From: a virus
Lineage: Duplodnaviria; Caudoviricetes
Virus record (IMG/VR): IMGVR_UViG_3300033067_000634
Span: 1-43,774 of that record
Length of the DNA: 43,774 nucleotides
Direction: 5' to 3' (one strand)
Made by a program: the position numbers and the translations under genes. This document shows positions 1 through 43,774 of this stretch, in pieces. Every line of letters starts with the position of its first letter. Position 1 is the first letter of the stretch. Below the pieces are notes generated by a model, which had not been told where the DNA came from, ran no database searches, and saw nothing but the letters and a program-made list of their open reading frames with translations.

Positions 1-93
1 CCGATGAAACTTCTGTATGTATATCAACTTTCTGCATCTATTTAACTTTTGTGCTATTAATCCCCGCCTTCGGCAATACCAGAACCGTTATAA
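1..93 (+). repeat. attC-like site E1 (partial: loop, right arm and GTT box)
   Basis: CCCCGCCTTCGGCAATACC-AGAACC-GTTATAA resembles the right arm of E6 (CCCAGCCTTCGGCAAGCCG-TAGCC-GTT). The left arm lies outside the window. Confidence 0.75.
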
Positions 94-99
94 GCCATA

Positions 100-303
100 T
101 TAAAAGACGAACCACCCAAAGAACTTTTCTAAATATGGAAGTATTCCTAACCACATTATTAGCTTAAACAAACCTATTCCAATCCATTTACCAGCATTAG
201 CGGATACTACTAAAATTAATAAACCGAAGAAAATACGGCTTATAACAGCACCTAAACAAGATGGCTGTTTTTCGTTTTCAATTGAAGTTTTATCTGTATT
301 CAT
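100..303 (-). CDS. Small membrane protein, cassette cargo; starts inside the E2 loop
   Basis: Hydrophobic C-terminal part; the segment QPSCLGAVIS is encoded by the E2 left arm and AAC box. Confidence 0.65.
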   Translation of the reverse strand: MNTDKTSIENEKQPSCLGAVISRIFFGLLILVVSANAGKWIGIGLFKLIMWLGILPYLEKFFGWFVF

Positions 304-371
304 AAATTCGTTTTTTAATTTAAGTTTCGAGGTATTAATCAGCCACCTCGTTTAGCTGCAAACCGTTGTGT
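240..371 (+). repeat. attC-like hairpin site E2
   Basis: TTATAAC-AGCACCTAAACAAGATGGCTG ... CAGCCACCTCGTTTAGCTGC-AAACC-GTTGTGT, an imperfect inverted repeat. Confidence 0.85.
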
Positions 372-385
372 GCAAGGCTACCAGA

Positions 386-667
386 CTACACAATTTTAAC
401 CATCTTGTATGTAATGGATTGGTAGTTATCATCAAACCTTGTCAGTCTCCACCCTTTTTCATTTGCCTGTTTTTCTGCAAACTCAAACTCACTATCATTA
501 AGGGTTGGTATTTTATCAATACCGTTGTTTAAGTGGAAACTTCCATCTCCACTTTCTGCACCCATACTAATAATGCCATTAAATTGTGTTATAAAATCAT
601 CAACCGTTTCGTAATTGACTTTTTCTTTCTTTAGTTTGATATTTTTTGCATCAATAAATTCTTTCAT
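386..667 (-). CDS. Hypothetical protein, cassette cargo
   Basis: 93-aa ORF filling the space between GTT 365 and AAC 696. Confidence 0.75.
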   Translation of the reverse strand: MKEFIDAKNIKLKKEKVNYETVDDFITQFNGIISMGAESGDGSFHLNNGIDKIPTLNDSEFEFAEKQANEKGWRLTRFDDNYQSITYKMVKIV

Positions 668-691
668 TTTCGTTTAATTTACCCGCCCTGC

Positions 692-779
692 ACACAACAA
701 TCGGTTTTATGCTATGCCGGACAGTTTGTTTATAATTTAAAGTACCTAAGTGGCACAGCATAAAGCCGTACCGTTATAA
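692..779 (+). repeat. attC-like hairpin site E3
   Basis: CAAC-AAT-CGGTTTTATGCTATGCC ... GGCACAGCATAAAGCCG-TACC-GTTATAA. Confidence 0.85.
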
Positions 780-818
780 GCAAGCTGGCTAACGCACGGG
801 CTTCACACGTCAGCCAGC

Positions 819-1389
819 TTATAACACGGGCTTTGTAAAATAAAGTAGCCCCGCCCGCCTATGGTATAAGAACGCACTCAACTCCAATTTGAGTAGCAAG
901 TTCGTATTCTTCTTTCACACCTTCTTTCACTTCACCAACAAATAGGGCAATGCCATTCAGTCGCTTAATGTTTTGTAGCATCAATAGTCTGCTCATTCCT
1001 AAAGTATCGGATGCTCCAAACCATCTAATTTGATTTTCGCCTGAAATTTCATCCAACGCATCTACCACTTCTGTACCAAAGCCTTTTGCAACTACGGTTT
1101 CTCTTGGTAAAAAGCAGTGATGTAAAACGGCTGATGGTTCTCCTTCTGCTTTTTCAGAGAAATCAATTAGGCTTTGGTTCTCTAACCAGTTGTCAATCTT
1201 CTTGTCAATTTCTGCCATCGTTTGCCCTTTGATGGTGAAGTGAATTGAGGCATCATACTTCTTACTACGTTCTGTTTTTTGTGATTCTTTTTCCATTTTG
1301 TGATTTTTTATTTAGTTTAACATTAATAATTTATCTTCCAAGTTGCTACACTTCGCTACTTTACTTCACAAAGCCCGAAACCGTTATAA
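819..1389 (+). repeat. attC-like site E4 with a whole gene in its loop
   Basis: Left arm TTATAAC-A-CGGGCTTTGTAAAATAAAGTAGC (819-849) pairs with GCTACTTTACTTCACAAAGCCCG-AAACC-GTTATAA (1355-1389). Confidence 0.85.
859..1296 (-). CDS. Hypothetical protein located in the E4 loop
   Basis: 145-aa ORF with a globular alpha/beta-like composition; no family recognised. Confidence 0.75.
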   Translation of the reverse strand: MEKESQKTERSKKYDASIHFTIKGQTMAEIDKKIDNWLENQSLIDFSEKAEGEPSAVLHHCFLPRETVVAKGFGTEVVDALDEISGENQIRWFGASDTLGMSRLLMLQNIKRLNGIALFVGEVKEGVKEEYELATQIGVECVLIP

Positions 1390-1415
1390 GCAAGGCGGTG
1401 AAAAACCGCCCAGAC

Positions 1416-1931
1416 TTATAACACGGGCTAAGAAGAAATAAAAACAACCCAGCCATCCTGTGTACTAATAAGCCTTTTCGTGTTTATAAGGTCTTGTCTT
1501 ATTGTATTCCAATTTCAATCTAATATGAGTTTCCAAGTCAATTCCAAATCCTTCGCAAAGGTCAAACAAACGAATTACGGTGTCGGCAATTTCATCTTCA
1601 AATGTATCCTTAACATTGTCTTTAAACGCTTGTATTGTAGCTGAATTTTCGTGAAACGGTGTGCTTTGTCTGTCTTGATTAAATTGCACCACATTTGCGA
1701 ATTTATTTTTTCGGTGTGCCTCCAACGCCTCCGATAATTCACTTACGCAAAGCATTAAAACTTCACCCACATTTTTCGTTTGTTTGTCCTCCCAAAAACC
1801 TTTTTTTACATTGTCTTGGTGGATTTCTGTCATCATTTTTTTGATTTCCATTGTAATTGTTTTTTTAGTTTATAAATTCAGAAGCCTTCCCTTCTGTTGT
1901 TTTTACTTCTCTTAGCCCGAAAACGTTACAG
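1416..1931 (+). repeat. attC-like site E5 with a whole gene in its loop
   Basis: TTATAAC-A-CGGGCTAAGAAGAAATAAAAACAAC (1416-1448) pairs with GTTGTTTTTACTTCTCTTAGCCCG-AAAAC-GTTACAG (1896-1931). Confidence 0.85.
1465..1851 (-). CDS. MazG-like nucleoside triphosphate pyrophosphohydrolase, in the E5 loop
   Basis: SELSEALEA and EDEIADTVIRLFD acidic motifs; C-terminal KLEYNKTRPYKH. Confidence 0.8.
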   Translation of the reverse strand: MEIKKMMTEIHQDNVKKGFWEDKQTKNVGEVLMLCVSELSEALEAHRKNKFANVVQFNQDRQSTPFHENSATIQAFKDNVKDTFEDEIADTVIRLFDLCEGFGIDLETHIRLKLEYNKTRPYKHEKAY

Positions 1932-1938
1932 GCAAGTG

Positions 1939-2655
1939 TTACCGACCTGCTACGATTTGAAAGTATCTATCTTTTAATGCTCTCAAATAAATATCATTTG
2001 GAATACCGTAATTCCCTATTGCCCACATATCGTTAAATTCTACAACGACATTCTCATTATTTTCTAAAACAGCAATATCAACTGTATAAGCACAAGGGAA
2101 TTTGCCTTTATTATTAGCAATAACCGTCATAGCATATTCATAATTTGGAGAAACTATAAATTCACCAGAGTAATTTCTTGCATCAATAAGTTTGTCATTA
2201 TGCACATATAAACGCCATTCACTAATAATTTTACTATTGAATACTTCGTAAGCCATTACCTTAGTTTCATTTGGCAAATTGGATAAGCAATAGTATCTCA
2301 TACCATCAAGAATTAACCCTGTAAAAAGTTTTATCTCAATTGGTTTAATAAATAACTTACTACCATTTGCAACTCTTTTATGAGCATCTTCAAGTGTAAT
2401 TACCTCACAATCTCTATTTGAGTTAATTGGCAATCTGACATCATTTAAACCTATCCTTTTGAAAACTTCTCTCATAAATTCAGTTGAACCTACAAATAAG
2501 TTTTTCTTAATGAGCATATCAAACTTACCACTTGCAACTTCTTCAAAAGATGTTAAGCGATAATCCATAGCGTTATCAATTGCACCATATAATGCACAAG
2601 AGCAATCAAAATGATGCGCTAATGCTCGTTCTGTATTTGACTGTATGTAAATCAT
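1939..2655 (-). CDS. ATP-grasp domain protein (DUF4343-like), cassette cargo
   Basis: LFIKP..KLFTG, SEWRLYV, YTVDIA and VVEFNDMWAIGNYG motifs. The start is re-assigned to MIYIQ (2655) because the longer start crosses site E6. Confidence 0.75.
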   Translation of the reverse strand: MIYIQSNTERALAHHFDCSCALYGAIDNAMDYRLTSFEEVASGKFDMLIKKNLFVGSTEFMREVFKRIGLNDVRLPINSNRDCEVITLEDAHKRVANGSKLFIKPIEIKLFTGLILDGMRYYCLSNLPNETKVMAYEVFNSKIISEWRLYVHNDKLIDARNYSGEFIVSPNYEYAMTVIANNKGKFPCAYTVDIAVLENNENVVVEFNDMWAIGNYGIPNDIYLRALKDRYFQIVAGR

Positions 2656-2680
2656 AATTTGTTTATTAATCCACACCTGC

Positions 2681-2811
2681 CTGTAACATCGGTTTGCCAA
2701 AAGCTGGGCAGACATGGTAAACTCAGCTTTTGTACCTTTAATCGGCTTTTGTACAAGGGTTCAGCTTTAGTGCTTCTAATCCCAGCCTTCGGCAAGCCGT
2801 AGCCGTTAGCG
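2681..2811 (+). repeat. attC-like hairpin site E6
   Basis: CTGTAAC-AT-CGGTTTGCCAAAAGCTGGG ... CCCAGCCTTCGGCAAGCCG-TAGCC-GTTAGCG. Confidence 0.85.
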
Positions 2812-2817
2812 GTAATG

Positions 2818-3108
2818 CTATTTAGCCACCGTTTCATTTTGCACCCTTACTTCGTGAGATGATTTACCGTTTGATTGTTGGTATGCTGTTTCTACTTTAC
2901 CCCTGCAATCAGTCCAATAAACAGCGTGTCCTCCATCGGTAAAGCGGTAAATCTTGCACCCATCTTTCTCAAACAGCAATTCCACATTGAAATTTCCGTT
3001 ACTTGTTTGTTCTTGCTGTTGCCCATCTTTCAAGCATCCTGTAAGCACTACCGCTAACATCGCACTTAACGCAATGGCGGCTTTTGTTCTTAATTTGAAG
3101 TTTCTCAT
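2818..3108 (-). CDS. Small lipoprotein (DUF4884-like), cassette cargo; starts in the E7 loop
   Basis: Signal peptide with lipobox LTGC; VELLFEKDGCKIYRF.DGG motif. Confidence 0.75.
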   Translation of the reverse strand: MRNFKLRTKAAIALSAMLAVVLTGCLKDGQQQEQTSNGNFNVELLFEKDGCKIYRFTDGGHAVYWTDCRGKVETAYQQSNGKSSHEVRVQNETVAK

Positions 3109-3182
3109 TTCTATTTATGTTTATTTGTTAATTAAAATTCTCGTTTCTAAACCGCCACTGCGTAAGTGCGTAGCCGTTATAA
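3052..3182 (+). repeat. attC-like hairpin site E7
   Basis: CGCTAAC-AT-CGCACTTAACGCAATGGCGG ... CCGCCACTGCGTAAGTGCG-TAGCC-GTTATAA. Confidence 0.85.
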
Positions 3183-3187
3183 AACAT

Positions 3188-3334
3188 TTATTTTTTGCTT
3201 TTTGCCAGAGCGCGTTTGACGTATTTAGTAATCGGCTCAATTAGTGACAAAGGCAATCTAAATGATACTGTTTTTGTAGGTTCGCCATATTTATTTTTAC
3301 GACCTGCATTTAATCTTTTTCCTCCGTGTTTCAT
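3188..3334 (-). CDS. Small putative DNA-binding protein
   Basis: GGKRLNAGRK motif followed by TKTVSFRLP (RHH-like). Start re-assigned to MKHGG because an upstream ORF occupies 3343-3504. Confidence 0.6.
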   Translation of the reverse strand: MKHGGKRLNAGRKNKYGEPTKTVSFRLPLSLIEPITKYVKRALAKSKK

Positions 3335-3342
3335 ATATAATT

Positions 3343-3504
3343 TTATTTTTTTTCTTGCTTTATATTTGATGCATTTTGTATCTGTAACCAAATATTTTTT
3401 TCATAAAACCTTAGAACGCCCAAAACCTCAAATACAGAAAACACATTTATTGTAATTGAATTTTCTCCATCATTTTTTTGTTTTATTATAATTGTTTTTT
3501 CCAT
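3343..3504 (-). CDS. Hypothetical 53-aa protein
   Basis: Hand-translated MEKTIIIKQKNDGENSITINV...QEKK*; fills the gap in a tight operon. Confidence 0.5.
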   Translation of the reverse strand: MEKTIIIKQKNDGENSITINVFSVFEVLGVLRFYEKNIWLQIQNASNIKQEKK

Positions 3505-3509
3505 TTTTA

Positions 3510-3701
3510 TTAGTATATTTGTTCGTTGCCAACCCCGCTTCCTGATTGAACAGCGCGCTCAGGGTTGGCGTTTTCTTTTAATAACTTTATATGTTTTTTA
3601 GTTTTAAGGAACATTTCTTTCTCAAACCTTCCCTTCACACTTCTAAAAAAATCACAGCACAATTCAAGGTGCATAATTAAATCTTCATTATTATGCTTCA
3701 T
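3510..3701 (-). CDS. Hypothetical protein
   Basis: 63-aa ORF packed tightly with its neighbours. Confidence 0.55.
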   Translation of the reverse strand: MKHNNEDLIMHLELCCDFFRSVKGRFEKEMFLKTKKHIKLLKENANPERAVQSGSGVGNEQIY

Positions 3702-3861
3702 TGTTTTCTATAATAAAAGAAGTTATTTTTTCCCTTAATTCAATTTCACTCATATTAGACGCAACATCAAAACCTCCTAAATAATTACAAAGCTCTTCGT
3801 TAAAAATAAAGGCTATTTCCATTTGGCTTTTTGTTGCTGTTGTTATGTTTAAGTCTTCCAT
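3691..3861 (-). CDS. Hypothetical 56-aa protein
   Basis: Hand-translated MEDLNITTATKSQMEIAF...NNEA*, directly after a promoter with an A-rich leader. Confidence 0.55.
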   Translation of the reverse strand: MEDLNITTATKSQMEIAFIFNEELCNYLGGFDVASNMSEIELREKITSFIIENNEA

Positions 3862-3886
3862 TTAGTTTTTGTTTTAATTGTATGAT

Positions 3887-3918
3887 GTAAAGATACAGCT
3901 ATATTTTGAATCTGCAAA
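3887..3918 (-). promoter_or_regulatory. Bacteroidota-type promoter carried inside a cassette
   Basis: Minus strand TTTG (-33) ... TATCTTTA (-7 variant) upstream of ORF 3861. Confidence 0.6.
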
Positions 3919-4017
3919 CTTTTTCAAGATTATTTTAGTGTTTTGTTGTAACTAACTGATAATCAAAAAGAATAATTTAGTTAAAAACCAACTAAAAAAA
4001 GCAAAAAATAAACGATT

Positions 4018-4095
4018 TTATAACACGTAATTGGCGCAAGCCTTTCACGTAGGGTTCCTGTTAACGGCCTGTCGCCAATCACGAAACCGTTACGC
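4018..4095 (+). repeat. attC-like hairpin site E8 (terminal site of the array)
   Basis: TTATAAC-A-CGTAATTGGCGCAAGCC ... GGCCTGTCGCCAATCACG-AAACC-GTTACGC; the GTTA overlaps the stop codon of ORF 4090..4314. Confidence 0.8.
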
Positions 4096-4314
4096 CACCC
4101 TCTTTACTATCAGATACCCCTCCCCATCATTACCTACCGAGAATTTTTTATCCCTATTGTTTCTGTAAAAAGCCTGTACTAGCATCCTCATTTTAGCGGC
4201 TTTCTTTGTTTCGTACACTCCATCATAAAAACACTCGCCAATCTCTAACGCTGCGAATGGATAAAATGTTCTTGCTGGTCTTCCAACTTTAGGGTATGTT
4301 TGTTTTCTTTCCAT
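4090..4314 (-). CDS. Small putative DNA-binding protein
   Basis: YPFAALEIGECF...KKFSV...LIVKRVA pattern of small phage DNA-binding proteins; first gene after the leftward promoter. Confidence 0.6.
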   Translation of the reverse strand: MERKQTYPKVGRPARTFYPFAALEIGECFYDGVYETKKAAKMRMLVQAFYRNNRDKKFSVGNDGEGYLIVKRVA

Positions 4315-4337: not shown

Positions 4338-4367
4338 CAAATATAAGCAAAAATAACCACATAGCAA
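4338..4367 (-). promoter_or_regulatory. Leftward Bacteroidota sigma-A promoter reading into the cassette array
   Basis: TATATTTG (-7) at 4345-4338 and TTG (-33) at about 4367-4365. Confidence 0.7.
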
Positions 4368-4424: not shown

Positions 4425-4454
4425 TTGCTAATATCAAACAAAGTTGTATATTTG
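4425..4454 (+). promoter_or_regulatory. Rightward Bacteroidota sigma-A promoter (early operon)
   Basis: TTG at 4425 and TATATTTG at 4447-4454. Confidence 0.7.
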
Positions 4455-5501: not shown

Positions 5502-5848
5502 AACTAATTATTCAGGCTACAATAGAAAATATAAGCACCCGAAACGACAATACCATTAAGGTCGTTTTAGGCACTCAGGAGGTGGACTCCTCAATAGCTG
5601 GCAGTTTATTTCAGATGAGGAATAAACTAGCCAAGGTGCTGATTTCTGACACTAACATAACAGACATTGAGTCGGCATTAGTTGATGAGCAAAAGATAAG
5701 CGCAAGTAAGAAGCGTTCTAGTTCATCTAGGCTTAGAAATGTTCTATATGTTTATCACGAGCAACAGGGGTTAGATATGGATTTCGAGACATTCTACACC
5801 TCTGAGATTGAAAAAATAATAACTCACTACAAAACTAAACTAACATGA
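5498..5848 (+). CDS. Hypothetical phage protein
   Basis: ATGA overlap; SSRLRNVLYV...FETFY...EKIITHYK. Confidence 0.7.
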   Translation: MKLIIQATIENISTRNDNTIKVVLGTQEVDSSIAGSLFQMRNKLAKVLISDTNITDIESALVDEQKISASKKRSSSSRLRNVLYVYHEQQGLDMDFETFYTSEIEKIITHYKTKLT

Positions 5849-27217: not shown

Positions 27218-27400
27218 ATGGCTGTGAATAATGAAAAATTAACCTTCATCGCAAAACTAGACGGTTGCGCTGCTGAATTAGTAAACAATTTGATCAAAGA
27301 GAAAAAGGAAAAATTAGAGTTAACAATGTTTGGTAAATCCCGCGCGGTGCAAATACTTCTCTGCGAACTTTATCATCTGAAAAAGAAAATAGCGAAATAG
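27218..27400 (+). CDS. 60-aa putative regulator (RHH-like)
   Basis: Start re-assigned to the ATG after the + promoter; strand LTFIAKLD followed by two helices (GKSRAVQILL). Confidence 0.5.
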   Translation: MAVNNEKLTFIAKLDGCAAELVNNLIKEKKEKLELTMFGKSRAVQILLCELYHLKKKIAK

Positions 27401-27463
27401 CTCAGTTGGTAGAGCGTTTGTTTCATACGCAAATGGTCACAGGTTCGATTCCTGTTTTCGCTA
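27391..27463 (+). tRNA. tRNA with CAT anticodon (elongator Met or Ile2)
   Basis: Acceptor AGCGAAA/TTTCGCT, D arm GCTC-AGTTGGTA-GAGC, anticodon arm TTTGT-TTCATAC-GCAAA, T arm ACAGG-TTCGATT-CCTGT; no encoded CCA. Confidence 0.9.
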
Positions 27464-28369: not shown

Positions 28370-30473
28370 TTGCCGGAGGTGTTTTTATTGGCTTTGGTTT
28401 GCCGAGTAATTTAGTTGAAACTGCATTATCAAATCCATAAATTTCATATAGCAATGTTTTTGCACTTTCTATTGATGTTGTTCCCCTTGCTACGCTGTCT
28501 TGTATTGCCAATATACCCTGTACGCCACCTACTGTTCCTTTTAGCTTCGCTTTGGCTTCGGCTTCAATATCTGTAACAGTAGCATCAGCCCCCCCCTCAA
28601 TAACAACTTCATCATTCACACTTGTATTGAATCCTTCCGCAACCGGTTGCTCACCTGATATACCGGTTATCATTGCATTAACAGCTTCATCCAAAAGTTT
28701 CTTTTGCAATTCAGGCGCGTAATCGTAGAAGTACTGTTTCTTTGATTCTGCTTCACGCTCTAACTGTAAAAATATATAGTCAAAGTTAGCATACAAAACC
28801 TTATTATACTTAGTAGTTAAGTCGTTTGCTATAATGAAACTAATCTCACTAAAGTTCTTATCGGGGAATGGGTAGAATTGTTGTTTAGCAATTATACGCT
28901 TTAACTCCTCCGGCTTATCTAAGTATTGTTGAACAGCTATATCAGTAGAAAGTTCTTGACGTACATAACCCGGAGCGTTTGAATCATTAGCAAGTTTCAA
29001 CTCATTAAGTAACTCGTCAACTGTTTTAAACTTAAAGTCTTTCGGGAATTTATAAACCACAACTACATCGTTAACATCTACAAACGCGCTCGATACCGTT
29101 ACGATCTGTTTATAAACATCGCTGTAATGGTTTGCGTATGGGAATAATGTATCGTAAACAGCCTCGTATGAGTAATCCATTTCGGTTGCTGTCTTACTCG
29201 CTGTTGCCTTAGTGAATATCTCTGAGTTAAATACAGCTTGTTTAGCCTCGTTCTTTAACTCATAAATAAAGTCATCTTGAAACTTCAACAAGTCAATAGG
29301 CGGGTATTCGTAATGAACCATCGACTCAAGGTTTAACATCTCATCTTTGTCATTAGGAATACGCATTACGACAGCATCCTGTGCGCTTGTGTGTATAGAT
29401 ATACCAGTTCCTTTACAAGATTGACATGTACCGCCTTCAGTCGTTTGTCCTTTGTTACATCCTAAATCTTTAACACCGTTACATTTATTAACGTATTGGA
29501 ATTTCTGAGGGAACGCGTGTAGTGCCATTGTCAAATCAAACTCCGATACGGTTTTGATTGACTTCATAAAGTAACACATTGCATCGTGCATAGGGCTTAC
29601 CATTGTTTTACCGTTGGTAACTTTATCGAGTTTATACCCAACTCTTACAGCCGGAACTTGACCTGCATTGTATTCAAATTCTTCTACCTCAAAAAATGTT
29701 TTATCATCGGTACGGAAATACTTTTTTATTCCGTATTCTGTGTCAATTTCAACTAACTCACCTTTGCGTATTCTAGTATTCTCTAATGATAATTGCGTGA
29801 ATTTAATCGCTACATCAGGAAAGTAAATAGTATATGAATATCCGGCATGACCCATGTCTTTATTGTCATAATAGGTAATATCGTTACGAACTACGAGCCA
29901 TTGAAGGATATTGTTTTTATAATGGTAGTTAATCGCTTCCTTACTTGAAACCTCATAAGGTCTAGGGCTTGGGAGTTCCAACATTTCACCAAGCGCGCCG
30001 CGTGGCACGTTATCAAATTCAGTTACTATAAAAGCGTTAGGGTCTGAGAAATTCAAATCTACTAATCGCGTATCTAAATACTCGTTAAGTGAATTAGTAC
30101 CGTTATACCCTTCAATAACATCATGCACGCGCTTTAACTTCTCCTCGCTCGGCTCGTTATCTTTAAAGTAAATTTTGTTGTTTATGTTGTTTGTCCTTCC
30201 TACTCTGTAAAAAGGGTTCATTATCATTGCTGAAACGGCCGGAGTAATTAGATTAGTTAATTCAACTCGTTGGTTAAACTGAACATCATCTTCTCTACGT
30301 GCAAACTTCTTTAAAAGCGACCGTATATCCTCTCCGGTTATTAACTGCGTATAAAGTTTGGCAAGTTCAGTAACTCGTGCATAATTACTATGCGTTAAAT
30401 TGCCTATAATAGTGTCGATAATTATAGGGTACGCCTGCTCTAATTGCTGTTCAGGCGTTAGTTGCTGTGCCAT
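28338..30473 (-). CDS. Portal protein
   Basis: 711 aa directly after TerL; contains a C..C..C..CxxC (CQSCKGTG) zinc-finger-like insert. Confidence 0.75.
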   Translation of the reverse strand: MAQQLTPEQQLEQAYPIIIDTIIGNLTHSNYARVTELAKLYTQLITGEDIRSLLKKFARREDDVQFNQRVELTNLITPAVSAMIMNPFYRVGRTNNINNKIYFKDNEPSEEKLKRVHDVIEGYNGTNSLNEYLDTRLVDLNFSDPNAFIVTEFDNVPRGALGEMLELPSPRPYEVSSKEAINYHYKNNILQWLVVRNDITYYDNKDMGHAGYSYTIYFPDVAIKFTQLSLENTRIRKGELVEIDTEYGIKKYFRTDDKTFFEVEEFEYNAGQVPAVRVGYKLDKVTNGKTMVSPMHDAMCYFMKSIKTVSEFDLTMALHAFPQKFQYVNKCNGVKDLGCNKGQTTEGGTCQSCKGTGISIHTSAQDAVVMRIPNDKDEMLNLESMVHYEYPPIDLLKFQDDFIYELKNEAKQAVFNSEIFTKATASKTATEMDYSYEAVYDTLFPYANHYSDVYKQIVTVSSAFVDVNDVVVVYKFPKDFKFKTVDELLNELKLANDSNAPGYVRQELSTDIAVQQYLDKPEELKRIIAKQQFYPFPDKNFSEISFIIANDLTTKYNKVLYANFDYIFLQLEREAESKKQYFYDYAPELQKKLLDEAVNAMITGISGEQPVAEGFNTSVNDEVVIEGGADATVTDIEAEAKAKLKGTVGGVQGILAIQDSVARGTTSIESAKTLLYEIYGFDNAVSTKLLGKPKPIKTPPANDSFTNSPTA

Positions 30474-32094: not shown

Positions 32095-32847
32095 TCATAT
32101 CACATCAAAATTATAGTAAGGATGAAGTTTCATAAAGTCTGGCAACTCGGTCTTATCAAATGGTTTCGGAATCCATACGCCTGCACACGCTGGGTGAGTT
32201 GCGTCTCCGGTTGGAGGAAATGGTTTATACTTTGATTCAAACCAATCCTGTTTACTTTGTAGCCATTCTGAACTATGTCCGTGACAGCTGATTTTATACT
32301 GAACGTCTGCCAAAGTACGTGCATAACCAAAGTGAAACACTTGGTTTTCGGGTTGTGGTGCATAAATCAAATCACCTTTATCAGCTCCTAAATAATAAAT
32401 GCGTTCTTGTCTCATTTGGTCATCACAAATCCAGTTGAATGACCTCCATAAGTGGCGCATCCAAATCAAACACTTGCTTGCCTTTCGCTCGTATGTTAGT
32501 TTAAGTAGTTCAGGTAAATATCCCGGCCTCCATATCTCATCAAAGTCAGCGTTGAACAGCAAGTCAAAACCTCGCGAGCGAGCGTAATCGTGTGCAAAGT
32601 TACGCTGCTGGTTTTCTTGTTGCCAGTCGCCTTTATGCCAAATTATTTTATTGTCATGGTCGATATTGGCACAAATATCAATTAACTCCTGTTCAGAATC
32701 AGGACACGTCATGTTTGACGGATGTCCGTGACTTGGTTTAGGTGAATAGCAAATTAATATTTGATCTACGTCATCGTAGTAGGACATTATCGAGTATGCT
32801 AAGTAATCTTTACCATATAATAATGGAAGGTATGCGAGTGTTTTCAT
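32095..32847 (-). CDS. GT-A fold glycosyltransferase-like protein
   Basis: QRN..DLLFNADFDE (DxD) and HFGY motifs. Confidence 0.7.
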   Translation of the reverse strand: MKTLAYLPLLYGKDYLAYSIMSYYDDVDQILICYSPKPSHGHPSNMTCPDSEQELIDICANIDHDNKIIWHKGDWQQENQQRNFAHDYARSRGFDLLFNADFDEIWRPGYLPELLKLTYERKASKCLIWMRHLWRSFNWICDDQMRQERIYYLGADKGDLIYAPQPENQVFHFGYARTLADVQYKISCHGHSSEWLQSKQDWFESKYKPFPPTGDATHPACAGVWIPKPFDKTELPDFMKLHPYYNFDVI

Positions 32848-33707
32848 ATTATTTTTATAAATTGTTCAGCCCAGTTAGTCGTACTGTACTTATTTTTTAC
32901 TAAATTGTAGCCCGCTTTTGCAATCCTGTTTCGCACATCGGGGTTTAATTTAAGGTACGTAATAATATCCAATAGTTCGTATTTGTGTTTATAGTAAACA
33001 CAGTTAACCCAGTTAGTAAAGTGGTTTTCAATACCGGGAAACTCTTTCATAACACAGCAAGAAGCAGACATCCCCTGAAGGTTTCTAGGTGTAAAATAAC
33101 CTAAAATGTCTTGCCAGTTATTTTCAGCTATTACTATATAAGAGCTTTGATACAGGTCAGGAACTTGCTCAACTGGTATTTGCTCTCCGTTTCCTGAGCC
33201 GTGAATCTCGTATGAGTTAATATGGTTCTTAATGAACTCTGATAATTCGATTCTACTCTCTCCACCCGGTACGCAGTTGTAAACATTACCTACAAATGAC
33301 ACCTTACCATCATTCATTTCAATTGGTTCGCGCAATCTATAATCTGGGAAATACTCCCAAATATATCTACAAGGTTTGCCGAGTAATACGGAATAAGCAT
33401 CTAATAACTCACCGGCAAATGGCACTAAGAACACATCTGTAAACTCCTTTGCTTCTTGTAGGTGCTGAAGTGGAGCATAGCGAACATCTCCAGTCCAAGT
33501 TACCCATTTTGAATTTGTTGTTTCCTTAAGAGCCTTACAGTCTCTTGCGCTTAACCCTCCTTGATAAAATACAACTTCTGGTTGATAGTGGTGGGCCTGC
33601 CAAATATGCTCAAACAAAACCGCTTCATGATTAACATTAAACGCATTAACCAAATCAACATGCTCGTTGGGCTTATCCCAGCCTAGCGGTATTAAAAGGA
33701 CTCTCAT
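32844..33707 (-). CDS. GT-B glycosyltransferase (CgeB/Glyco_trans_1_2-like)
   Basis: WTGDVR, VSFVGN and RNRIAKAGYNLV motifs; paralogue of 35207..36103. Confidence 0.75.
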   Translation of the reverse strand: MRVLLIPLGWDKPNEHVDLVNAFNVNHEAVLFEHIWQAHHYQPEVVFYQGGLSARDCKALKETTNSKWVTWTGDVRYAPLQHLQEAKEFTDVFLVPFAGELLDAYSVLLGKPCRYIWEYFPDYRLREPIEMNDGKVSFVGNVYNCVPGGESRIELSEFIKNHINSYEIHGSGNGEQIPVEQVPDLYQSSYIVIAENNWQDILGYFTPRNLQGMSASCCVMKEFPGIENHFTNWVNCVYYKHKYELLDIITYLKLNPDVRNRIAKAGYNLVKNKYSTTNWAEQFIKII

Positions 33708-34432
33708 AACTCCTCTATTGATTTAGTTAGTATCTCTGTTACTTGTCCTTTTGGTAGCCATTTCTCCATTGCGTGGCATCCAATTGGGTTTGGATAATAC
33801 ATTGTTTCAACAGAAAACTTCAGAGCAATTGGCTTGTCTGCTTTATTACCGCTCATGTTTAAACTATAATAAACGTCTTCGTTACCGTGCGCAACTTGAT
33901 TGTAATGAAACCGCTGTATTGTTTCTAAGGTCTTCGCCTTATTTCTAATACTTAACCCTCCATTCCCGCCCAATCTTGGCATGGCTCTATTAGTCCAAGG
34001 CGCACCTATATAATCGTAATTCTCAAACATATCCAAACCTTTACGCAAAAGTAAGCTATCAGATTGAAATACTAAAACAGTTTCGTATGGTATTAAATTC
34101 CAAAAGTGATTAGATGTTAACAGTTGGTTGTACCGGTTCGCGTCAAGTTTATCAGAACCAACTACCATCCAATTAACTCCAATGACATCCTTTAGTTCGT
34201 TTTCTACAAAAGACTCGTTCTCGTATGAGTGGCAAACAGTTAAGCCCCATCCTTTGGGTAAAAAGTGCAGGTGATTTTTAACTATAAGACCGAAGTTTTC
34301 AATCTTTCTAGTCTCAACAATGACCGCGCCTTTCTTCGCGTTGGTCAGGACGGAATAAGGGCGGTCGATTGTCGGCTTGATCGCTTGTATGTATTCAGAT
34401 GTGGTCATAGTTTGATTACGCCAATTCCGCAC
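33704..34432 (-). CDS. DUF5672-like glycosyltransferase-associated protein
   Basis: LVFQSDS, YDYIGAPW, GNGGLSIR and NEDVYY motifs; true start probably MTTSEY. Confidence 0.8.
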   Translation of the reverse strand: MRNWRNQTMTTSEYIQAIKPTIDRPYSVLTNAKKGAVIVETRKIENFGLIVKNHLHFLPKGWGLTVCHSYENESFVENELKDVIGVNWMVVGSDKLDANRYNQLLTSNHFWNLIPYETVLVFQSDSLLLRKGLDMFENYDYIGAPWTNRAMPRLGGNGGLSIRNKAKTLETIQRFHYNQVAHGNEDVYYSLNMSGNKADKPIALKFSVETMYYPNPIGCHAMEKWLPKGQVTEILTKSIEEL

Positions 34433-35040
34433 GTTTTACTTGCGATAAACTCCCAGTTTGTTTTACCTTGCTTTACCTCTTGCCATAACTTCATAATCCC
34501 CGGACACGCTGCGCTGTTAATGTCGTGGAATATTATTAATCCTCCTTTGTTGATATGCTTCAATGCGTTTTCGTAGTCGCGTTTAGCTCCTTCGTATGAG
34601 TGGTCGGCATCAATAAATATACAGTCGAAATTATCTTGGCACATCTTAAAATAATCGTCTGTTTTGTTGTTTGAGAATCTTAACTCTGCACTTATATCAA
34701 TTGAATTTATGTAATCGACAATCTCCTTTTCATTCTGCCCGATACCTAAATTACGATACGCTAAGTTATCAACAGCTACCGCCGTTTCTAAAGACTCCTG
34801 CATAAAATAGCAAGCCGTAACAAACGAACCACCATTACCTATCCCCAACTCTAGGTATGTTTTAACATTGCTTTCTTTTAACAGCAAAAGAAGACTTGAG
34901 TATTCCTCTGGAACTTGCTGCAACTTCAAGCCTCCTGTTTTCTTAGCATGGAAGTAATCAGGGTTTGAGCTACCTGCCTCATGCCTTAGCCAGTCGGTCA
35001 ACTGTACTATGCTGTAATTATAAACTTCTTTTGGTATCAT
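34405..35040 (-). CDS. Class I SAM-dependent methyltransferase (Methyltransf_24-like)
   Basis: YLELGIGNGGS, FDCIFIDADHSY and GGLIIFHD motifs. Confidence 0.85.
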   Translation of the reverse strand: MIPKEVYNYSIVQLTDWLRHEAGSSNPDYFHAKKTGGLKLQQVPEEYSSLLLLLKESNVKTYLELGIGNGGSFVTACYFMQESLETAVAVDNLAYRNLGIGQNEKEIVDYINSIDISAELRFSNNKTDDYFKMCQDNFDCIFIDADHSYEGAKRDYENALKHINKGGLIIFHDINSAACPGIMKLWQEVKQGKTNWEFIASKTCGIGVIKL

Positions 35041-35210
35041 AACACTTGTTTTATTATTTCTCTTTTATGCTTGCCGTATTTTCTTTTAATGATCATTTTC
35101 CCATCAACAAACTTTATGTCTTTTTTGTCAATGTAATAGATTGTCTTTATGCCACCATTCCCATCGTTGGCACATTTAGGCATTTCGTAATCAGGACATT
35201 TTGATATCAT
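35037..35210 (-). CDS. Hypothetical 57-aa protein
   Basis: Hand-translated; ATGA-coupled on both sides. Confidence 0.45.
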   Translation of the reverse strand: MISKCPDYEMPKCANDGNGGIKTIYYIDKKDIKFVDGKMIIKRKYGKHKREIIKQVL

Positions 35211-36103
35211 ATCATTTCCATTAACTGTTTAACTCTATTTCTCCACAAATGGTTTGTGTGTACATGCTCAGCCCCTTGCCTTCCTATGTGTTTACGCTCA
35301 ATGTCGTACTGTAACCAATAATCAACCTTACTTAGTAATTCCGGTATATCATTCCATACGTCCAAATGCTTCCCTACTTCAAATTCGAGCGCAATATCTT
35401 TATAATTATGCGATAAACAAAATACTCCAGTACCCATTAATCTAAACAACCGGTCTGAACTGTAACGCGAATAGTTGAAGTGTGATAGGTTAATTGCAAT
35501 CTTAGCCCCCCTGTAAATCTTTGCCTCTTCCTCTTGGTTGTTTTCAGCGTGAAATCCTTTCCAGTTACCCCCAAACACCTTGAATCTTTTGCCGTATTTT
35601 CTTTGTAGCGAATCTACCATTTGATAGCGCAAACCAGACAACGGGAATCCCCCGTGATTGTTGCCCATAAACACTATTTCAGCTTCTTCTCTTACTTCAC
35701 CTTCTGGCTTAAATATCTTTTCAGGGAATCCTATCTGTAAGTAATCGGCTCTGATACCTCGCGCCGTAGCTGTTTCAACATCATTCATATTTGTGAACAA
35801 CGTCATGTGAATAACTTTGCCTATGTCGATGAACCACTGAGGTAATGGATGGCGAACGTCTCCAGTCCAGTTCACTACCTTGCATTTACTGGCTATGTAA
35901 CGAGCCGTATCAACCCCAATTATTCCGGGTGTTTGTATCTGTAAGAACACTAAATCCGGCTTGTGGTTTTCGACTAACACCCTTAAATCAGAATTGAATG
36001 TACGGTTGCGCCCAGACCAATCCCAATAAACAACGTCCGAAACCTCCGCGAAAGCATCGCGTATGTCAAACTGCTGACCGAGTGCTACCTGAAGTACTTT
36101 CAT
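35207..36103 (-). CDS. GT-B glycosyltransferase (CgeB/Glyco_trans_1_2-like)
   Basis: WTGDVR, IVFMGN, YRGAKIAIN, SDRLF and HLWRNRV motifs. Confidence 0.85.
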   Translation of the reverse strand: MKVLQVALGQQFDIRDAFAEVSDVVYWDWSGRNRTFNSDLRVLVENHKPDLVFLQIQTPGIIGVDTARYIASKCKVVNWTGDVRHPLPQWFIDIGKVIHMTLFTNMNDVETATARGIRADYLQIGFPEKIFKPEGEVREEAEIVFMGNNHGGFPLSGLRYQMVDSLQRKYGKRFKVFGGNWKGFHAENNQEEEAKIYRGAKIAINLSHFNYSRYSSDRLFRLMGTGVFCLSHNYKDIALEFEVGKHLDVWNDIPELLSKVDYWLQYDIERKHIGRQGAEHVHTNHLWRNRVKQLMEMI

Positions 36104-36294
36104 GCGTGTTTATTGTATAAATATAAATAAACTTTAATATAGCATTGCCTACAATTAATGCTTAACATTCCGTGTTCTGTTTCCCTGTTATCTTCATTAT
36201 ACTCTGCAAAAGCCCTTAGCCAAGTTGGCTCTTTTGATATAATTGGGAATAAAGATATAGAAGATTTCATATAATCTAACTCATCCATTGTCAT
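36100..36294 (-). CDS. Small CxxC protein
   Basis: LSINCRQC; ATGA-coupled. Confidence 0.55.
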   Translation of the reverse strand: MTMDELDYMKSSISLFPIISKEPTWLRAFAEYNEDNRETEHGMLSINCRQCYIKVYLYLYNKHA

Positions 36295-36908
36295 ATCGTA
36301 GGCGTTAAAAGTTTATACGGTTGCGGTGCACGGTAGTTCGGGTTATATGACCTTACTCCTGACTTATGTAAGTGGTACGTCTTAATTGTTTTAGATGGGT
36401 TGATAACATTATACCCAGCTCTGTAAAACCTTTCAGCTATTGCGTTATCGCACCCGGGTATGCCCATATTGAAATTGCCCTGAACATTCTTTGGTTTGCC
36501 TTTAAATATCCAACAGTCCTGAGAATCCCAGCGGTTCAGGAAGTGAATAGAATCCTTTTCGACCTCCCAGCGTGTCAGCGCAAAGCATAGCGGTCTAGTA
36601 TGCTGATAGTCGTGAATCTTTGCTATTGTTTCGTCAAAGTAAATATCTGAGTTAGCTATTATATTCCAGTCCTCATCACTACTGAATGATCGGATAGCCT
36701 CAAAGAATGTGTTATAGCTTGGTCGGGCTTTGTAAACTAACTCTGTTACCTTTTCGTTTTCAAGTAATGGTGATTCTATTGTCCCGTCCGTTAACGCGTA
36801 AACCTTATCAATCGCCTCACAGTTTATGTTCATGAGCAAAGCATCGTCCAACTCCTTCTGACGGATAGGTGACTTGTCGATGTAGTATGATATAAACAAG
36901 TTAATCAT
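36291..36908 (-). CDS. Glycosyltransferase-like protein
   Basis: IIANSDIYFD, ALTRW, SQDCWIF and GCDN motifs. Confidence 0.65.
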   Translation of the reverse strand: MINLFISYYIDKSPIRQKELDDALLMNINCEAIDKVYALTDGTIESPLLENEKVTELVYKARPSYNTFFEAIRSFSSDEDWNIIANSDIYFDETIAKIHDYQHTRPLCFALTRWEVEKDSIHFLNRWDSQDCWIFKGKPKNVQGNFNMGIPGCDNAIAERFYRAGYNVINPSKTIKTYHLHKSGVRSYNPNYRAPQPYKLLTPTI

Positions 36909-36987
36909 TTTTTCTTAAAATCTTTTAGCCATTCTATAAAGCACTCAATGACCTGCTTTGTGCTTGCCTTTGATTTTCTTCTTTTTC

Positions 36988-37614
36988 TCATACGTCTAAT
37001 TTCTGCGGCAAATGACACACGTAATACTCCGGTGTCCGTATCTTTACCTTATTGTTATATCGCAATAGTTGTTGTACCAAATTACCGTCATCAGTACCGT
37101 ATTGATTAGCTACTCCATTCCACTCAACAGCTAAACTCCTTTTGTGGCAAATGTTTGACGTACCGTTTTGAAATCGTTGGTTAATAAGTATGTGTCTTTC
37201 AATTAACCTGCCTGTCTTATCAAGTATCTTATCGTTAAACCAAACCCAATCCGGATGCCGGTGTTCAATAAGTTCATGGTTAATGATGCTTAAATGATTC
37301 TCGCCCCATTTATCGTCAGCGTCCAAGTAAACAATATACTCGCCCTTAGATCGCTTAATCCCTTCTTGCCTTGGTTTGCCTGACCATAACTTCTGCTTTT
37401 GTATAAGAACGCAATCAACTTTTAAATTGTCTTTGTAGAACCTTTCTATCAGTTCGTAGGTCTTTTCGCAACCGTCAGCTACTACCATTATTTCGTAGTC
37501 ATCAAACGTGCCAGCTATAACTGAATCAACAGCACGTATTAACTTCTTTTCCCTATCCTTTGCCGCGTATTGATATTCACCCAAAAATGAGGGGATAATT
37601 ACCGAAAACCTCAT
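36988..37614 (-). CDS. Glycosyltransferase family 2
   Basis: FSVIIP, VVADG and GEYIVYLDADD motifs. Confidence 0.85.
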   Translation of the reverse strand: MRFSVIIPSFLGEYQYAAKDREKKLIRAVDSVIAGTFDDYEIMVVADGCEKTYELIERFYKDNLKVDCVLIQKQKLWSGKPRQEGIKRSKGEYIVYLDADDKWGENHLSIINHELIEHRHPDWVWFNDKILDKTGRLIERHILINQRFQNGTSNICHKRSLAVEWNGVANQYGTDDGNLVQQLLRYNNKVKIRTPEYYVCHLPQKLDV

Positions 37615-39827: not shown

Positions 39828-39832
39828 GGTTT

Positions 39833-41294: not shown

Positions 41295-41358
41295 TGAAAT
41301 TATTCTATACAAAAAATAATATTAGCTGTTTTTTATTAACAAAATATTGTTAGTAAGT

Positions 41359-42222
41359 TTATGCTGCTTTTAACCGTCTAAGGTAATTATCTTGTACTAA
41401 CACACACTGAAGCGGAGTTTTTATCTTACTTATGTGGTTGTGGCTGATATGAGAATATATTTGAGTCGTTTTAATATTGCCGTGTCCGAGTAGCTTTTGT
41501 ATTATTGACAGGTCGATACCACCCTCATGTAGATGTGTTGCGTAACAATGCCTAATGAGGTGTGGGTAAACCCTTTTGTTGATTCCGGCTAACTGCGAAT
41601 ACTTTTGAATGAACTGCGCTATACTTCGCTCTGAATATTGCGGGTCGTTTTGACCGTTAAATAAGAAAAGCTGTGGTCTGTATTGCCTGAAATATAAACG
41701 TAGCAACTGAAGTAAGGTTGGGTCTAGTGATACCTGTCTATCTTTCCCACCCTTTGCATCAATAATATTAATAACCATACGTGAACTATCAATATCTTGT
41801 ATACGCAAGTTTATAACCTCACCAACCCTAATTCCAGTTGAGTACATTAAACAAAGAATTGTTTTGTGTTTCAAGTTTGATGCGCAGTGGATAATACGCC
41901 CCATTTCTTCTACCGACAAAACAATGGGAAGTTTTTGCTTTTTCTTACAATATTGAATGTATCTAAATTTATTTGGCTGTTTTGCTACATAATAATAAAG
42001 CCTTTTGATTGCAGAATGGTAGCCTCTTTGAGTATTATGTTCTTCAAATGAATATAAAAATTCTTTAATATCATACTCAGATATGTGCTTTAAACTATCT
42101 CTTTCCTTAAATCTTGAAAGAAACAAAGTAGCACACGATACATAATTTTTAATTGAGTTATCTCTATACCTTCTACCTCTTAACTCAAACTCAAACTTTT
42201 CGATTAACTTTGATATTTCCAT
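41359..42222 (-). CDS. Tyrosine recombinase, IntI/XerD-related, lacking the integron I2 insertion
   Basis: SAM-like N-terminus, KLPIVLS, and catalytic R (GIRVGE), K (AKGGKDR), HxxR (HLIRH), LGH and Y (TTQIY). Confidence 0.92.
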   Translation of the reverse strand: MEISKLIEKFEFELRGRRYRDNSIKNYVSCATLFLSRFKERDSLKHISEYDIKEFLYSFEEHNTQRGYHSAIKRLYYYVAKQPNKFRYIQYCKKKQKLPIVLSVEEMGRIIHCASNLKHKTILCLMYSTGIRVGEVINLRIQDIDSSRMVINIIDAKGGKDRQVSLDPTLLQLLRLYFRQYRPQLFLFNGQNDPQYSERSIAQFIQKYSQLAGINKRVYPHLIRHCYATHLHEGGIDLSIIQKLLGHGNIKTTQIYSHISHNHISKIKTPLQCVLVQDNYLRRLKAA

Positions 42223-42259
42223 AGATTAAAGTATTAATAGTTAATTAATTAGACTAATT

Positions 42260-42282
42260 GCATTACATATTTTATGTTACCT
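42260..42282 (+). other. attI-like primary site
   Basis: GTTACCTGC at 42276 matches GCAGGTAAC at 43113 but has no hairpin arm before it (TTTTAT-GTT instead of arm-NNNNC-GTT); 54 bp upstream of the integrase ATG. Confidence 0.65.
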
Positions 42283-42289
42283 GCAAGTG

Positions 42290-43015
42290 CTACATTTCGT
42301 TTCCAAAGAGAGTTCCTGCTTGTAATTCTTTTTCTTTTCTTTTTTCTCCCACCTTTTCTAAAATGGTATTTTCTTTTTCTTTGTCAATTTCTGAAATAAT
42401 GCAATCAATATCATTCTGCTTACATACTTTCATAGTCGTTCCGCTTCCTCCAAATGGGTCATAAACTACATTCGGTTTATTGGGTATTGCATCAAGTATG
42501 TTTTGAACTATTCCATCAGGCATTACTGCAATGTGGTTTTGGTCTTTTCTTTGGTGTGTCGGAACTAATCTCCATACATCAGATAAGGAATTTTTATTAA
42601 GCAATTTTACTTTTGGCTTTTTAGTTAGCCAATAAATTCTTTCTGAAAATGGGAAGAAGCGTATTTTATCACAATTTGCACTTTTACCCATATCCCAAGT
42701 AATCTCTTGCTTAATTACAAAATCAGTTTTTAAAAGCCATTCCATCGGGTGTATTGCTTTACCATCTTTAATTCTTACTTTGTGGTTGTAAAACATACTA
42801 CCATTTTCAGAAAGCACTCTGTAACATTCGTTCAATACTTCAATTTGCCATTTTTGATAATCAGGTTCTTTCATATCATTATTTGCATAACTTCCAAATT
42901 GTAATCGGTTACTGTGCATTTTGCCTATATTATAAGGCGGTGAAGTAATAATCAAATCAATACTATTATCTTCAAATCGTTTAAGCGTTTCTTCGCAAGG
43001 TTCTATATAAATCAT
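42290..43015 (-). CDS. N6-A/N4-C DNA methyltransferase (beta class), cassette cargo
   Basis: TSPPY motif IV precedes DPFGGSGTT motif I. Confidence 0.9.
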   Translation of the reverse strand: MIYIEPCEETLKRFEDNSIDLIITSPPYNIGKMHSNRLQFGSYANNDMKEPDYQKWQIEVLNECYRVLSENGSMFYNHKVRIKDGKAIHPMEWLLKTDFVIKQEITWDMGKSANCDKIRFFPFSERIYWLTKKPKVKLLNKNSLSDVWRLVPTHQRKDQNHIAVMPDGIVQNILDAIPNKPNVVYDPFGGSGTTMKVCKQNDIDCIISEIDKEKENTILEKVGEKRKEKELQAGTLFGNEM

Positions 43016-43114
43016 ATTTTTAATTTTTCAAATTAATATTTGCCATCGCACAAAAAAGAAAAGAAAAAGTGTTTGCGTTCCAAATCAAGTTCTGTGGTAA
43101 TAATCCGCACCAGC

Positions 43115-43208
43115 AGGTAACAGCGTATATAAGAAATGGCACATCGGCATTAGTGCTAAATTTCAACATTATGAAAGTGCCACTTCTCATATACGCAAAA
43201 CGTTAGTG
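43115..43208 (+). repeat. attC-like hairpin site E9
   Basis: AGGTAAC-A-GCGTATATAAGAAATGGCAC ... GTGCCACTTCTCATATACGC-AAAAC-GTTAGTG. Confidence 0.85.
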
Positions 43209-43237
43209 GCAATTTAAAAACAAAGCCACCGCACAGT

Positions 43238-43438
43238 TTACTCTTTAATAACTACCTGTCCAACATTTCTAAACATTCCTACATATACATCATACTTATT
43301 CGGTTCATCTGTTTCCGATAGTTCAATGCTTTTACTCATCAAATGTTTAGAAAGTTCTCTCCACATTGCTTTTTCGTTCTTTACAACAATAGTTTTGTTA
43401 ATGTTGTTTCTGCCTAAGTTAATCAGTTGTAATTCCAT
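43238..43438 (-). CDS. Hypothetical protein, cassette cargo
   Basis: 66-aa ORF between GTT 43202 and AAC 43465. Confidence 0.65.
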   Translation of the reverse strand: MELQLINLGRNNINKTIVVKNEKAMWRELSKHLMSKSIELSETDEPNKYDVYVGMFRNVGQVVIKE

Positions 43439-43460
43439 CGCTTTTTGTTTTTAAACAGAC

Positions 43461-43590
43461 CACTAACAAATGCTTGTTGCAAGTGGCAGTCTGTGGTTTA
43501 TATTAAGTTAATTGTTTCAAATAATCTTAGTCGGTTAATGAACATTCGTGCTTTTAATGCCACCTGACAACAAGCATCGGCACGTTAGGT
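43461..43590 (+). repeat. attC-like hairpin site E10
   Basis: CACTAAC-AA-ATGCTTGTTGCAAGTGGCA ... TGCCACCTGACAACAAGCAT-CGGCAC-GTTAGGT. Confidence 0.85.
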
Positions 43591-43611
43591 GCAATGCCGT
43601 GAACATCTCCG

Positions 43612-43773
43612 TCAGAACATTCGCAGTTGACTATTCCAGTCATTAAAACGCTTTTCTTGTTTCTCATAATATTCTTTGTCAATTTCAAATCCTATAAATT
43701 GTTTACCCGCCTTTGCTGCTGCTATTCTTGAACTTCCGCTTCCTACATGGGTATCTAAAATCAAATTTGCCTC
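43612..43773 (-). CDS. C-terminus of a second DNA methyltransferase (truncated by the window end)
   Basis: Hand-translated EANLILDTHVGSGSSRIAA..FIGFEIDKEYY..QLRMF*. Confidence 0.75.
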   Translation of the reverse strand, partial: EANLILDTHVGSGSSRIAAAKAGKQFIGFEIDKEYYEKQEKRFNDWNSQLRMF

Positions 43774-43774
43774 C

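Follow-up and report, generated by a model that had tools for sequence, protein, structure and literature searches.

Can a phage run a cassette system of the integron type with an enzyme that is not an integron integrase (IntI)? This question is raised by the IMG/VR virus record IMGVR_UViG_3300033067_000634 (Caudoviricetes), considered here over its whole length of 43,774 bases (the window), in which a tyrosine recombinase gene adjoins an array of short units bounded by DNA hairpins. The first-pass annotation had described this locus as a phage-encoded integron-like system with a non-canonical integrase, an attI-like site and ten attC-like hairpins. By every comparative test that we ran, the platform is real, intact-looking and integron-like, and we consider it probable, from sequence comparison, that the recombinase, its docking site and the hairpin-bounded units work together like an integron without the IntI insert. 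The record is classed as linear and 88% complete and contains terminase, portal and tape-measure genes; the nearest cellular relatives of its recombinase point to a Bacteroidota host. It breaks off inside array elements at both ends, in half a hairpin on the left and in a methylase cassette on the right. We infer that these two ends join across a gap, and the join should be read with this in mind, as the window's ends do not overlap and share no 12-mer. The join is favored by the common polarity of the two parts, by both ends breaking in array elements, as run X1 likewise breaks at hairpins, and by one of the compared contigs (numbered L here), L398, in which one uninterrupted stretch holds enzyme, docking site and array together with a divergent RecT block. 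Four public assemblies gave nothing on the sequence left of base 1, and the gap between 43774 and 1 may hold further cassettes.

The sites were located by scanning for the pattern AACA/T, arm, loop, complementary arm and CGTT. Nine whole sites were found, all on the plus strand of the window, and the count of ten hairpins made earlier thus holds for nine of them, as E1 (1–89) consists of a right arm ending at GTT 87–89 and is cut by the contig start. Two additional weak matches (scores 13.2 and 11.9) lie far from the array, to be compared with six weak matches in 326,799 shuffled control bases, and the stricter first run of the scan gave no site on the minus strand of the window. Within each of the nine complete units, the six bases that follow GTT were compared to the six that precede the closing AAC; 52 of the 54 positions are complementary, a degree reached by only 6 of 362,880 permutations. 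The start/end complementarity claimed for these units is therefore confirmed, and it extends beyond the window, where the complementary R''/R' boxes of integrons are found in 211 of 293 units between adjacent sites (five or six of six bases matching). The arms were also said to differ and yet to remain paired; indeed, compensatory changes occur at 15 of 17 pairs in 45 sites. In all seven short hairpins the minus strand folds lower than the plus strand, with z scores of −1.5 to −7.2. An RNA family was rejected as the identity of the hairpins, as they match no Rfam family, the Rfam search returning only one tRNA and one chance match. When E2 and E10 were used as DNA queries, no match was obtained in 50,697 GenBank phage records.

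The recombinase itself (41359–42222, minus strand, 287 residues) matches PF13495 and, at 126 bits, PF00589, and its residues R132, K157, H221, R224, H247 and Y256 (R-K-H-R-H-Y) are invariant in 40 of 40 aligned relatives, picked from 120 among the matches listed. It was rejected as an integron integrase because the IntI insert of about 42 residues is missing: the relevant stretch comprises 26 residues here and 67–68 in the nine IntI-type proteins among 127 aligned recombinases, and IntI4 (2A3V) aligns in two pieces, with recombinase residues 172–198 opposite 175–244. The IntI profile TIGR02249 gives 156 bits against a cut-off of 265, in a match that is split in two stretches, and the curated Xer cut-offs are not reached either (XerA 195 < 220, XerD 179 < 330, XerC 156 < 335). 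The best structure-database match is the archaeal XerA 4A8E (E value of 1e-36), and a likeness in fold to IntI4 or XerA is suggested by sequence and predicted secondary structure. An AlphaFold model (mean pLDDT 84.8) places no helix in the insert stretch. In a tree of 127 rows, the recombinase falls in a 14-row clade (support 100) nested among 21 rows from viral and metagenomic contigs (support 91), which in turn are enclosed by a 44-row group with Bacteroidota enzymes (support 94), and the nine insert-bearing IntI rows cluster apart (support 97). One should consider that this is a quick tree with flagged long branches and a tentative deep branching. A single-protein query of viral contigs returned no relative, and an alignment query found 16 viral loci. 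In two of the compared contigs, L011 and L145, the recombinase open reading frames (ORFs) are about 400 residues long, with an N-terminal extension of about 110 residues.

Upstream of the recombinase lies the predicted docking site (42258–42286, plus strand), a short imperfect inverted repeat around GTT 42276, with a predicted crossover at G^TT 42276/42277. As had been noted, this GTT has no attC-type hairpin and lies close to the recombinase, 54 bases upstream of the ATG at 42222. Of 24 distinct contigs that carry the recombinase, 20 have a GTT 42–67 bases upstream of it, followed by six bases of which five or six agree with the end of the first cassette detected; when referring to this count, it should be considered that the best GTT was chosen among 4–19 candidates and that two of the 20 contigs are identical over their shared length. 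Two contigs, L381 and L347, show 98.8% identity across the 1,119 bases that comprise enzyme and site and carry unrelated arrays from GTTA on, and the closest relative, L098 (83% protein identity), has the backbone in common up to the site, followed by a different first cassette. These comparisons support the attI-like site that had been proposed, at which cassettes would enter at G^TT beside the enzyme. The docking site ends in TTATGTTA, which we take to resemble the XerD arm of dif. In L314 (about 300–330) and L194 (about 5690–5720, both in array polarity), arrays begin at another head that ends in GGTA before GTT, with no recombinase alongside.

Whether the phage enzyme is the one that drives the array can be approached from its co-occurrence with sites. 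Eight of the ten viral loci with at least 33% identity, taken from the 16 collected by the alignment query, have upstream sites in the same polarity (in one of them a single weak site), and the remaining two have less than 300 bases upstream; six more distant loci have no site scoring at least 12.5. The claimed tie between sites and this integrase clade thus holds in the direction from recombinase to sites, while the reverse is weak, as 45 of 50 site-bearing viral records (found by junction motif, with one of 51 left out) are without the enzyme. As so few site-bearing phages carry it, a host enzyme may account for much of the traffic, and there is a minor chance that it is the related recombinase of the host that moves the array, with the phage enzyme a passenger or a minor player. 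Relatives at an E value of at most 1e-40 are indeed present in 111 of 301 sampled Bacteroidota-group genomes, where the best is 45% identical over the full length, 10 of the best 25 host relatives have a site within 1.5 kb, and the arrays of L314 and L194 start at heads without an adjacent recombinase. However, the phage enzyme is intact, belongs to a clade of its own and has a docking site that lies at a fixed distance and tracks the first cassette; moreover, host and phage routes can coexist. A loose gap pattern searched in four host genomes showed no excess over the control. The description of the system as the phage's own shuffling platform should thus be qualified: its cassette logic, attI-like site and non-IntI recombinase hold by comparison, but, as the system is common to Bacteroidota chromosomes, it is not a phage invention. 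Outside the Bacteroidota, weak similar sites were seen beside a 32% relative in a Peregrinibacteria bin (L037, 1236–9187).

The orientation and nature of the cargo bear on the origin of the array. All cargo genes of the window lie on the minus strand, antisense to the strand reading AAC...GTT, and this orientation prevails among 191 unique viral units, 143 of which have an antisense longest ORF and 7 a sense one, with 27 units having none and 14 being under 120 bases. The mainly top-strand orientation of classical cassettes is thus not seen in viral arrays; in eight chromosomal or metagenomic loci, by contrast, 10 genes are sense and 1 is antisense. The 78 cargo proteins of at least 85 residues include 23 DNA methylases, 2 Mom-like and 2 PAPS-reductase-like proteins and 48 without family, in loci that were chosen by three junction motifs, a choice that may bias the count. 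One viral array, L449, holds many DNA methylase cassettes, three closely related copies of which carry one 118-base hairpin family. MazG was rejected as a general cassette gene, as its relatives at 63–71% in other phages have no flanking sites; among 80 MazG loci, 3 have one long, low-scoring site candidate around or near the gene. We consider it very unlikely that the recombinase is an ordinary prophage integrase, with GTT 42276 as attP and the array as host DNA picked up by faulty excision. No second tyrosine recombinase was found in the window genome or in five relatives, and the left half of the docking site presumably resembles a Xer dif arm. Nonetheless, the cargo is phage-type and inverted, unlike that of host arrays, near-identical platforms carry unrelated arrays, and chromosomes yielded no member of the phage clade, the best match being 43% identical among the matches listed and 45% over the full length in the 301 genomes.

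Comparison of related phages agrees with the expectation that cassette order and content vary. Apart from L381/L347 and L098, the ATP-grasp cassette (1925–2808; R2K-type gene at 1939–2655, minus strand, PF18299) recurs in L314 at 93.8% with exact GTT limits and with its hairpin E6 (2685–2807, 123 bases) kept; in L315, E6 is replaced by another hairpin, and in three other public assemblies the cassette begins at 1922–1925. The cassette 1 unit (gene at 42290–43015, minus strand, an N6/N4 DNA methyltransferase by PF01555) recurs in L226 at 91.6%, in second position, with another left neighbor and another hairpin. Near-identical ends of E9 (43119–43204, 86 bases) stand beside other genes in L209 and L355, and the cut cassette 3 matches, at 79% on the DNA level, a methylase cassette in L004. 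The public assemblies show E2 (244–367, 124 bases) with loose ends at exactly 243 and 367, and this hairpin, of a repeat family common to many other genomes, has 71–72% matches in 3 of 401 Bacteroidota-group genomes. In run X4, the unit of a 93-residue gene of no assigned function (386–667, minus strand) forms a separate contig piece (372–687), and in runs X1 and X4 the arms of E5 are joined around content unlike that of the window. A near-identical unit of 150–190 bases is repeated four times between cassettes in L011.

When 327 sites with their flanks were compared, gene plus hairpin were in common in 7 pairs, ending 4–6 bases from the G of GTT, and the downstream unit alone in 21 pairs, which break at GTT or close to it; 18 pairs have the same gene next to different hairpins and break 4–14 bases from the start of AAC, and the same hairpin stood between unrelated neighbors in 138 pairs. 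Judged by these breakpoints, a unit moves together with the hairpin on its right, which is the integron pattern, and hairpins are additionally replaced at AAC. The exchange boundaries at G^TT that had been predicted are thus present (L314, L381/L347 and the breakpoint pairs), although boundaries fall at AAC as well. That the hairpins are terminator-like or MITE-like (miniature inverted-repeat transposable element) repeats guiding homologous or template-switch recombination, with no site-specific enzyme, is highly improbable, since, for all that hairpin families stand beside unrelated genes (the 138 pairs) and phages encode ERF or RecT annealing proteins, the breaks are no more than a few bases away from GTT or AAC, in comparisons of hairpins with a likeness of only about 20–65%, and neither the end complementarity of the units nor a tracking docking site is expected from homology alone. 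A search for ERF in five related records found none; L398 has RecT.

The design of the sites offers a hint as to how they could be used. In 143 sites, 228 of 354 arm mismatches are A/G, i.e., a G-T wobble on the minus strand. Such a minus-strand G-T pair occupies one fixed position in 121 of 157 sites, an asymmetry that is not imposed by the scan, and another position is G-T on the plus strand in 66 of the same 157. Extra-helical bases are uncommon; the top lists for the 143 sites contain 37 on R' arms as opposed to 13 on R'' arms. Classical attC sites carry them on the R''-L'' arm (Bouvier 2009, PMC2727003); the usual two or three bases on that arm are mostly absent here. As classical attC sites deprived of extra-helical bases are described in the same source as shifting top-strand recombination to the R'' box, the paucity of such bases might explain the AAC breakpoints. 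Finally, AAC-adjacent unit ends have more 10-mers in common with hairpin loops than expected (3.9 versus 0.9 in shuffles), which hints that units arose from hairpin-like precursors.

In the integron-like mechanism that we favor, the recombinase would cut the folded minus strand of a hairpin at AAC, and the cut hairpin would be joined either to a second hairpin or to the docking site in double-stranded form. Units would leave as circles and re-enter next to the recombinase. Most stems lack an extra-helical base and have the fixed minus-strand G-T wobble in its place, which likely favors this strand. Cutting at the other AAC is likely too, and would swap hairpins between genes. As the genes lie backwards to the sites, transcription would come from the far array end or from within cassettes; promoter scans were at chance level, and no promoter is therefore claimed. 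A search for RNA data sets that contain 1–4300 listed none. In part of the cassettes, the start codon is likely supplied by the hairpin. For the phage, the likely benefit would be that genes for DNA modification, which guard its DNA from host restriction, are quickly gained and lost.

Several observations weigh against this integron-like reading and need to be considered. The I2 helix, which serves integrons in avoiding a second cut, is missing. The recombinase is present in only 5 of the 50 site-bearing viral records and in 1 of the 14 near-complete ones. L008 and L145 fall outside the docking-site rule, L011 fits further out and L009 has too little DNA. The sites were selected for arm complementarity, which makes their pairing partly circular, and the breakpoint counts are pairs rather than independent events. 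Among the 327 sites, no pair shares hairpin and downstream unit with a different upstream unit, as would be expected from simple R''-to-R'' deletion. Four public assemblies contained no clean excision joint and no circle, although contigs drop rare forms.

Some of the array hairpins enclose genes of their own. E4 (823–1385, 563 bases) holds a gene for 145 residues in its loop (859–1296, minus strand), and E5 (1420–1927, 508 bases) holds that of a MazG-like pyrophosphatase (1465–1851, minus strand, a PHROG pyrophosphatase match); their unusual length is due to these whole genes. The units preceding them are empty, i.e., 53 bases (773–825, plus strand, z scores of −4.7/−5.2) before E4 and 40 bases (1383–1422, plus strand, −7.3/−6.6) before E5, each itself a strong hairpin. 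Loop ORFs were found in eleven long sites overall, and an empty unit precedes 5 of the 8 loop-gene sites with a known left neighbor, as compared to 9 of 242 short sites. The frame of the gene is open into its own hairpin in 81 of 171 units (73 of 342 for other frames), a figure inflated by a test window that takes in 30 unit bases. In 27 units an in-frame ATG lies within the hairpin and none in the first 90 unit bases, and two genes of the window are of this kind. For example, the left arm and loop of E7 (3056–3178, 123 bases) supply the first codons of the predicted lipoprotein gene at 2818–3108.

A more far-reaching version of the favored reading is that of a two-ended integron. We regard it as tentative and somewhat doubtful as a whole. 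According to this version, an enzyme without I2 would cut near-symmetrical hairpins at either AAC, gene units and hairpins would both be exchangeable, and either loop of the folded circle could be loaded with a gene. Hairpins would donate start codons, phages would build cassettes from ordinary phage genes, and the system may resemble a Xer-like stage before integrons.

How does the locus compare to known systems? Like classical integrons (class 1, Vibrio), it has, by comparison, an active-site tyrosine recombinase, a docking GTT and complementary R''/R' boxes. It differs in the insert (26 residues as opposed to 67–68 in IntI), in spacers of about 1 and 5 bases, in the fixed G-T wobble and in the scarcity of extra-helical bases, of which the few that occur are mainly on the R' arm. 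In addition, the genes are inverted, cargo can sit in the loop and hairpins are exchanged at AAC too. Membership in the classical integrons was thus rejected on insert, clade, extra-helical bases and gene orientation. A plain cluster of attC sites lacking integrases (CALIN) was rejected as well since, although there is formally no IntI, the array has beside it a recombinase whose docking site tracks the first cassette; most other site-bearing phages (those outside the 5 of 50 with the recombinase) do fit the CALIN description.

In a survey of 10,705 phage genomes, 17 CALINs were counted, together with 3 complete integrons and one integrase on its own (Qi 2023, PMC9892861). The phage clusters of that survey likewise consist of attC-like arrays with methylase cargo; in the accessible parts of that paper, the complete integrons have a true IntI from hosts and the CALINs have no assigned recombinase, unlike the dedicated non-IntI enzyme and docking site found here on the phage. 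Polaribacter phage P12002L carries eight plus-strand sites of the window's form, and its P12002L_attC1, the one tested site that IntI1 did not recombine (PMC9892861), is by inspection a window-type site. The attC2 sequence of the same study occurs twice in P12002L (L230, about 29175–29240 and 37200–37266), each time directly before GTT, and each copy opens a cassette run with a different first cassette in a phage that has no annotated integrase; by its sequence context, attC2 may be a duplicated docking site. The suggestion that such an architecture had not been described in a phage is thus true in part, as phage integrons and attC clusters, including the P12002L sites, are in print (PMC9892861). 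For a cassette system without I2, no description was found in the literature, of which subscription papers and bioRxiv supplements were scarcely covered, and the accessible parts of 10.1101/030866, PMC8876359, PMC7204230, PMC8618304 and PMC8776804 hold nothing on it.

Xer systems are the other reference. XerA, XerC and XerD are of the same length class as the phage enzyme, with XerA 4A8E as the best structure match, and the CTX phage is described as recombining a folded single strand with neither I2 domain nor extra-helical bases (PMC4792948). As opposed to Xer systems, the phage enzyme is below the Xer cut-offs and lies beside a cassette array, and, unlike in Xer/CTX, its folded sites vary in sequence and are not copies of one dif site. 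Closest of all are Bacteroidota chromosomal arrays (L033, L575, L025, L107), which have the same site form, a recombinase about 38–46% identical and hairpin families in common. Nonetheless, the genes of these host arrays are forward and mostly longer, many host enzymes are longer and lie head to tail with the array, and the phage enzymes form their own clade.

In integrons, the I2 helix and the extra-helical bases are held to allow folded single-strand recombination in one direction. A system that seemingly moves cassettes with neither makes their supposed role testable. According to Escudero 2016 (PMC4792948), integrons use the I2 helix together with attC to avoid a second cut, and a viral, Xer-like origin of integrons is speculated there; the present system bears on this proposal of a Xer-like, possibly viral, ancestor. 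If our reading is true, phages of Bacteroidota gain a programmed way to acquire and drop methylases against host restriction. There would also be a gene pool common to phages and hosts in a phylum in which very few integrons have been found, with one complete integron named for Bacteroidetes in the accessible text of IntegronFinder 2.0 (PMC9024848).

The remaining elements of the array are as follows, with hairpins on the plus strand and genes on the minus strand. E9, found by scan, has a z score of −7.2 on the minus strand, while E3, E6, E7, E8 and E10 were recognized by scan and folding and E4 and E5 by scan; E2 is based on scan and comparison. Cassette 2 carries a gene for 66 residues (43238–43438) with no family match in profile scans and ends in E10 (43465–43586, 122 bases), followed by the start of cassette 3 (43584–43774), cut by the contig end, with the C-terminus of a second DNA methyltransferase at 43612–43773 (PF01555). 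At the left end of the window, an ORF of 67 residues (100–303) has its sole ATG start inside the loop of E2, and E3 (696–775, 80 bases) follows the 93-residue gene, which, like this ORF, is based on ORF reading. The product of the gene at 2818–3108 is a predicted lipoprotein, DUF4884-like at 29.9 bits to PF16225 against a cut-off of 30, with a lipobox recognized by eye. The last unit (3176–4024, 849 bases) has complementary ends and short ORFs at 3188–3391, 3343–3504, 3510–3701 and 3691–3861, and E8 (4022–4091, 70 bases) is the far end of the array.

Beyond E8, a minus-strand ORF is followed by a divergently oriented block that includes ERF and NinG. Between the array side and the ERF block lie two divergent TATATTTG boxes (4338–4345, minus strand, and 4447–4454, plus strand); they fit what we take to be a Bacteroidota promoter motif, which occurs at chance frequency genome-wide. 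Elsewhere in the window, a plus-strand tRNA gene (27391–27463) lies amid minus-strand structural genes, and the region between terminase and replication genes (32844–37614), which is common to L098, encodes three glycosyltransferase-like proteins, an O-methyltransferase-like protein and a DUF5672 protein.

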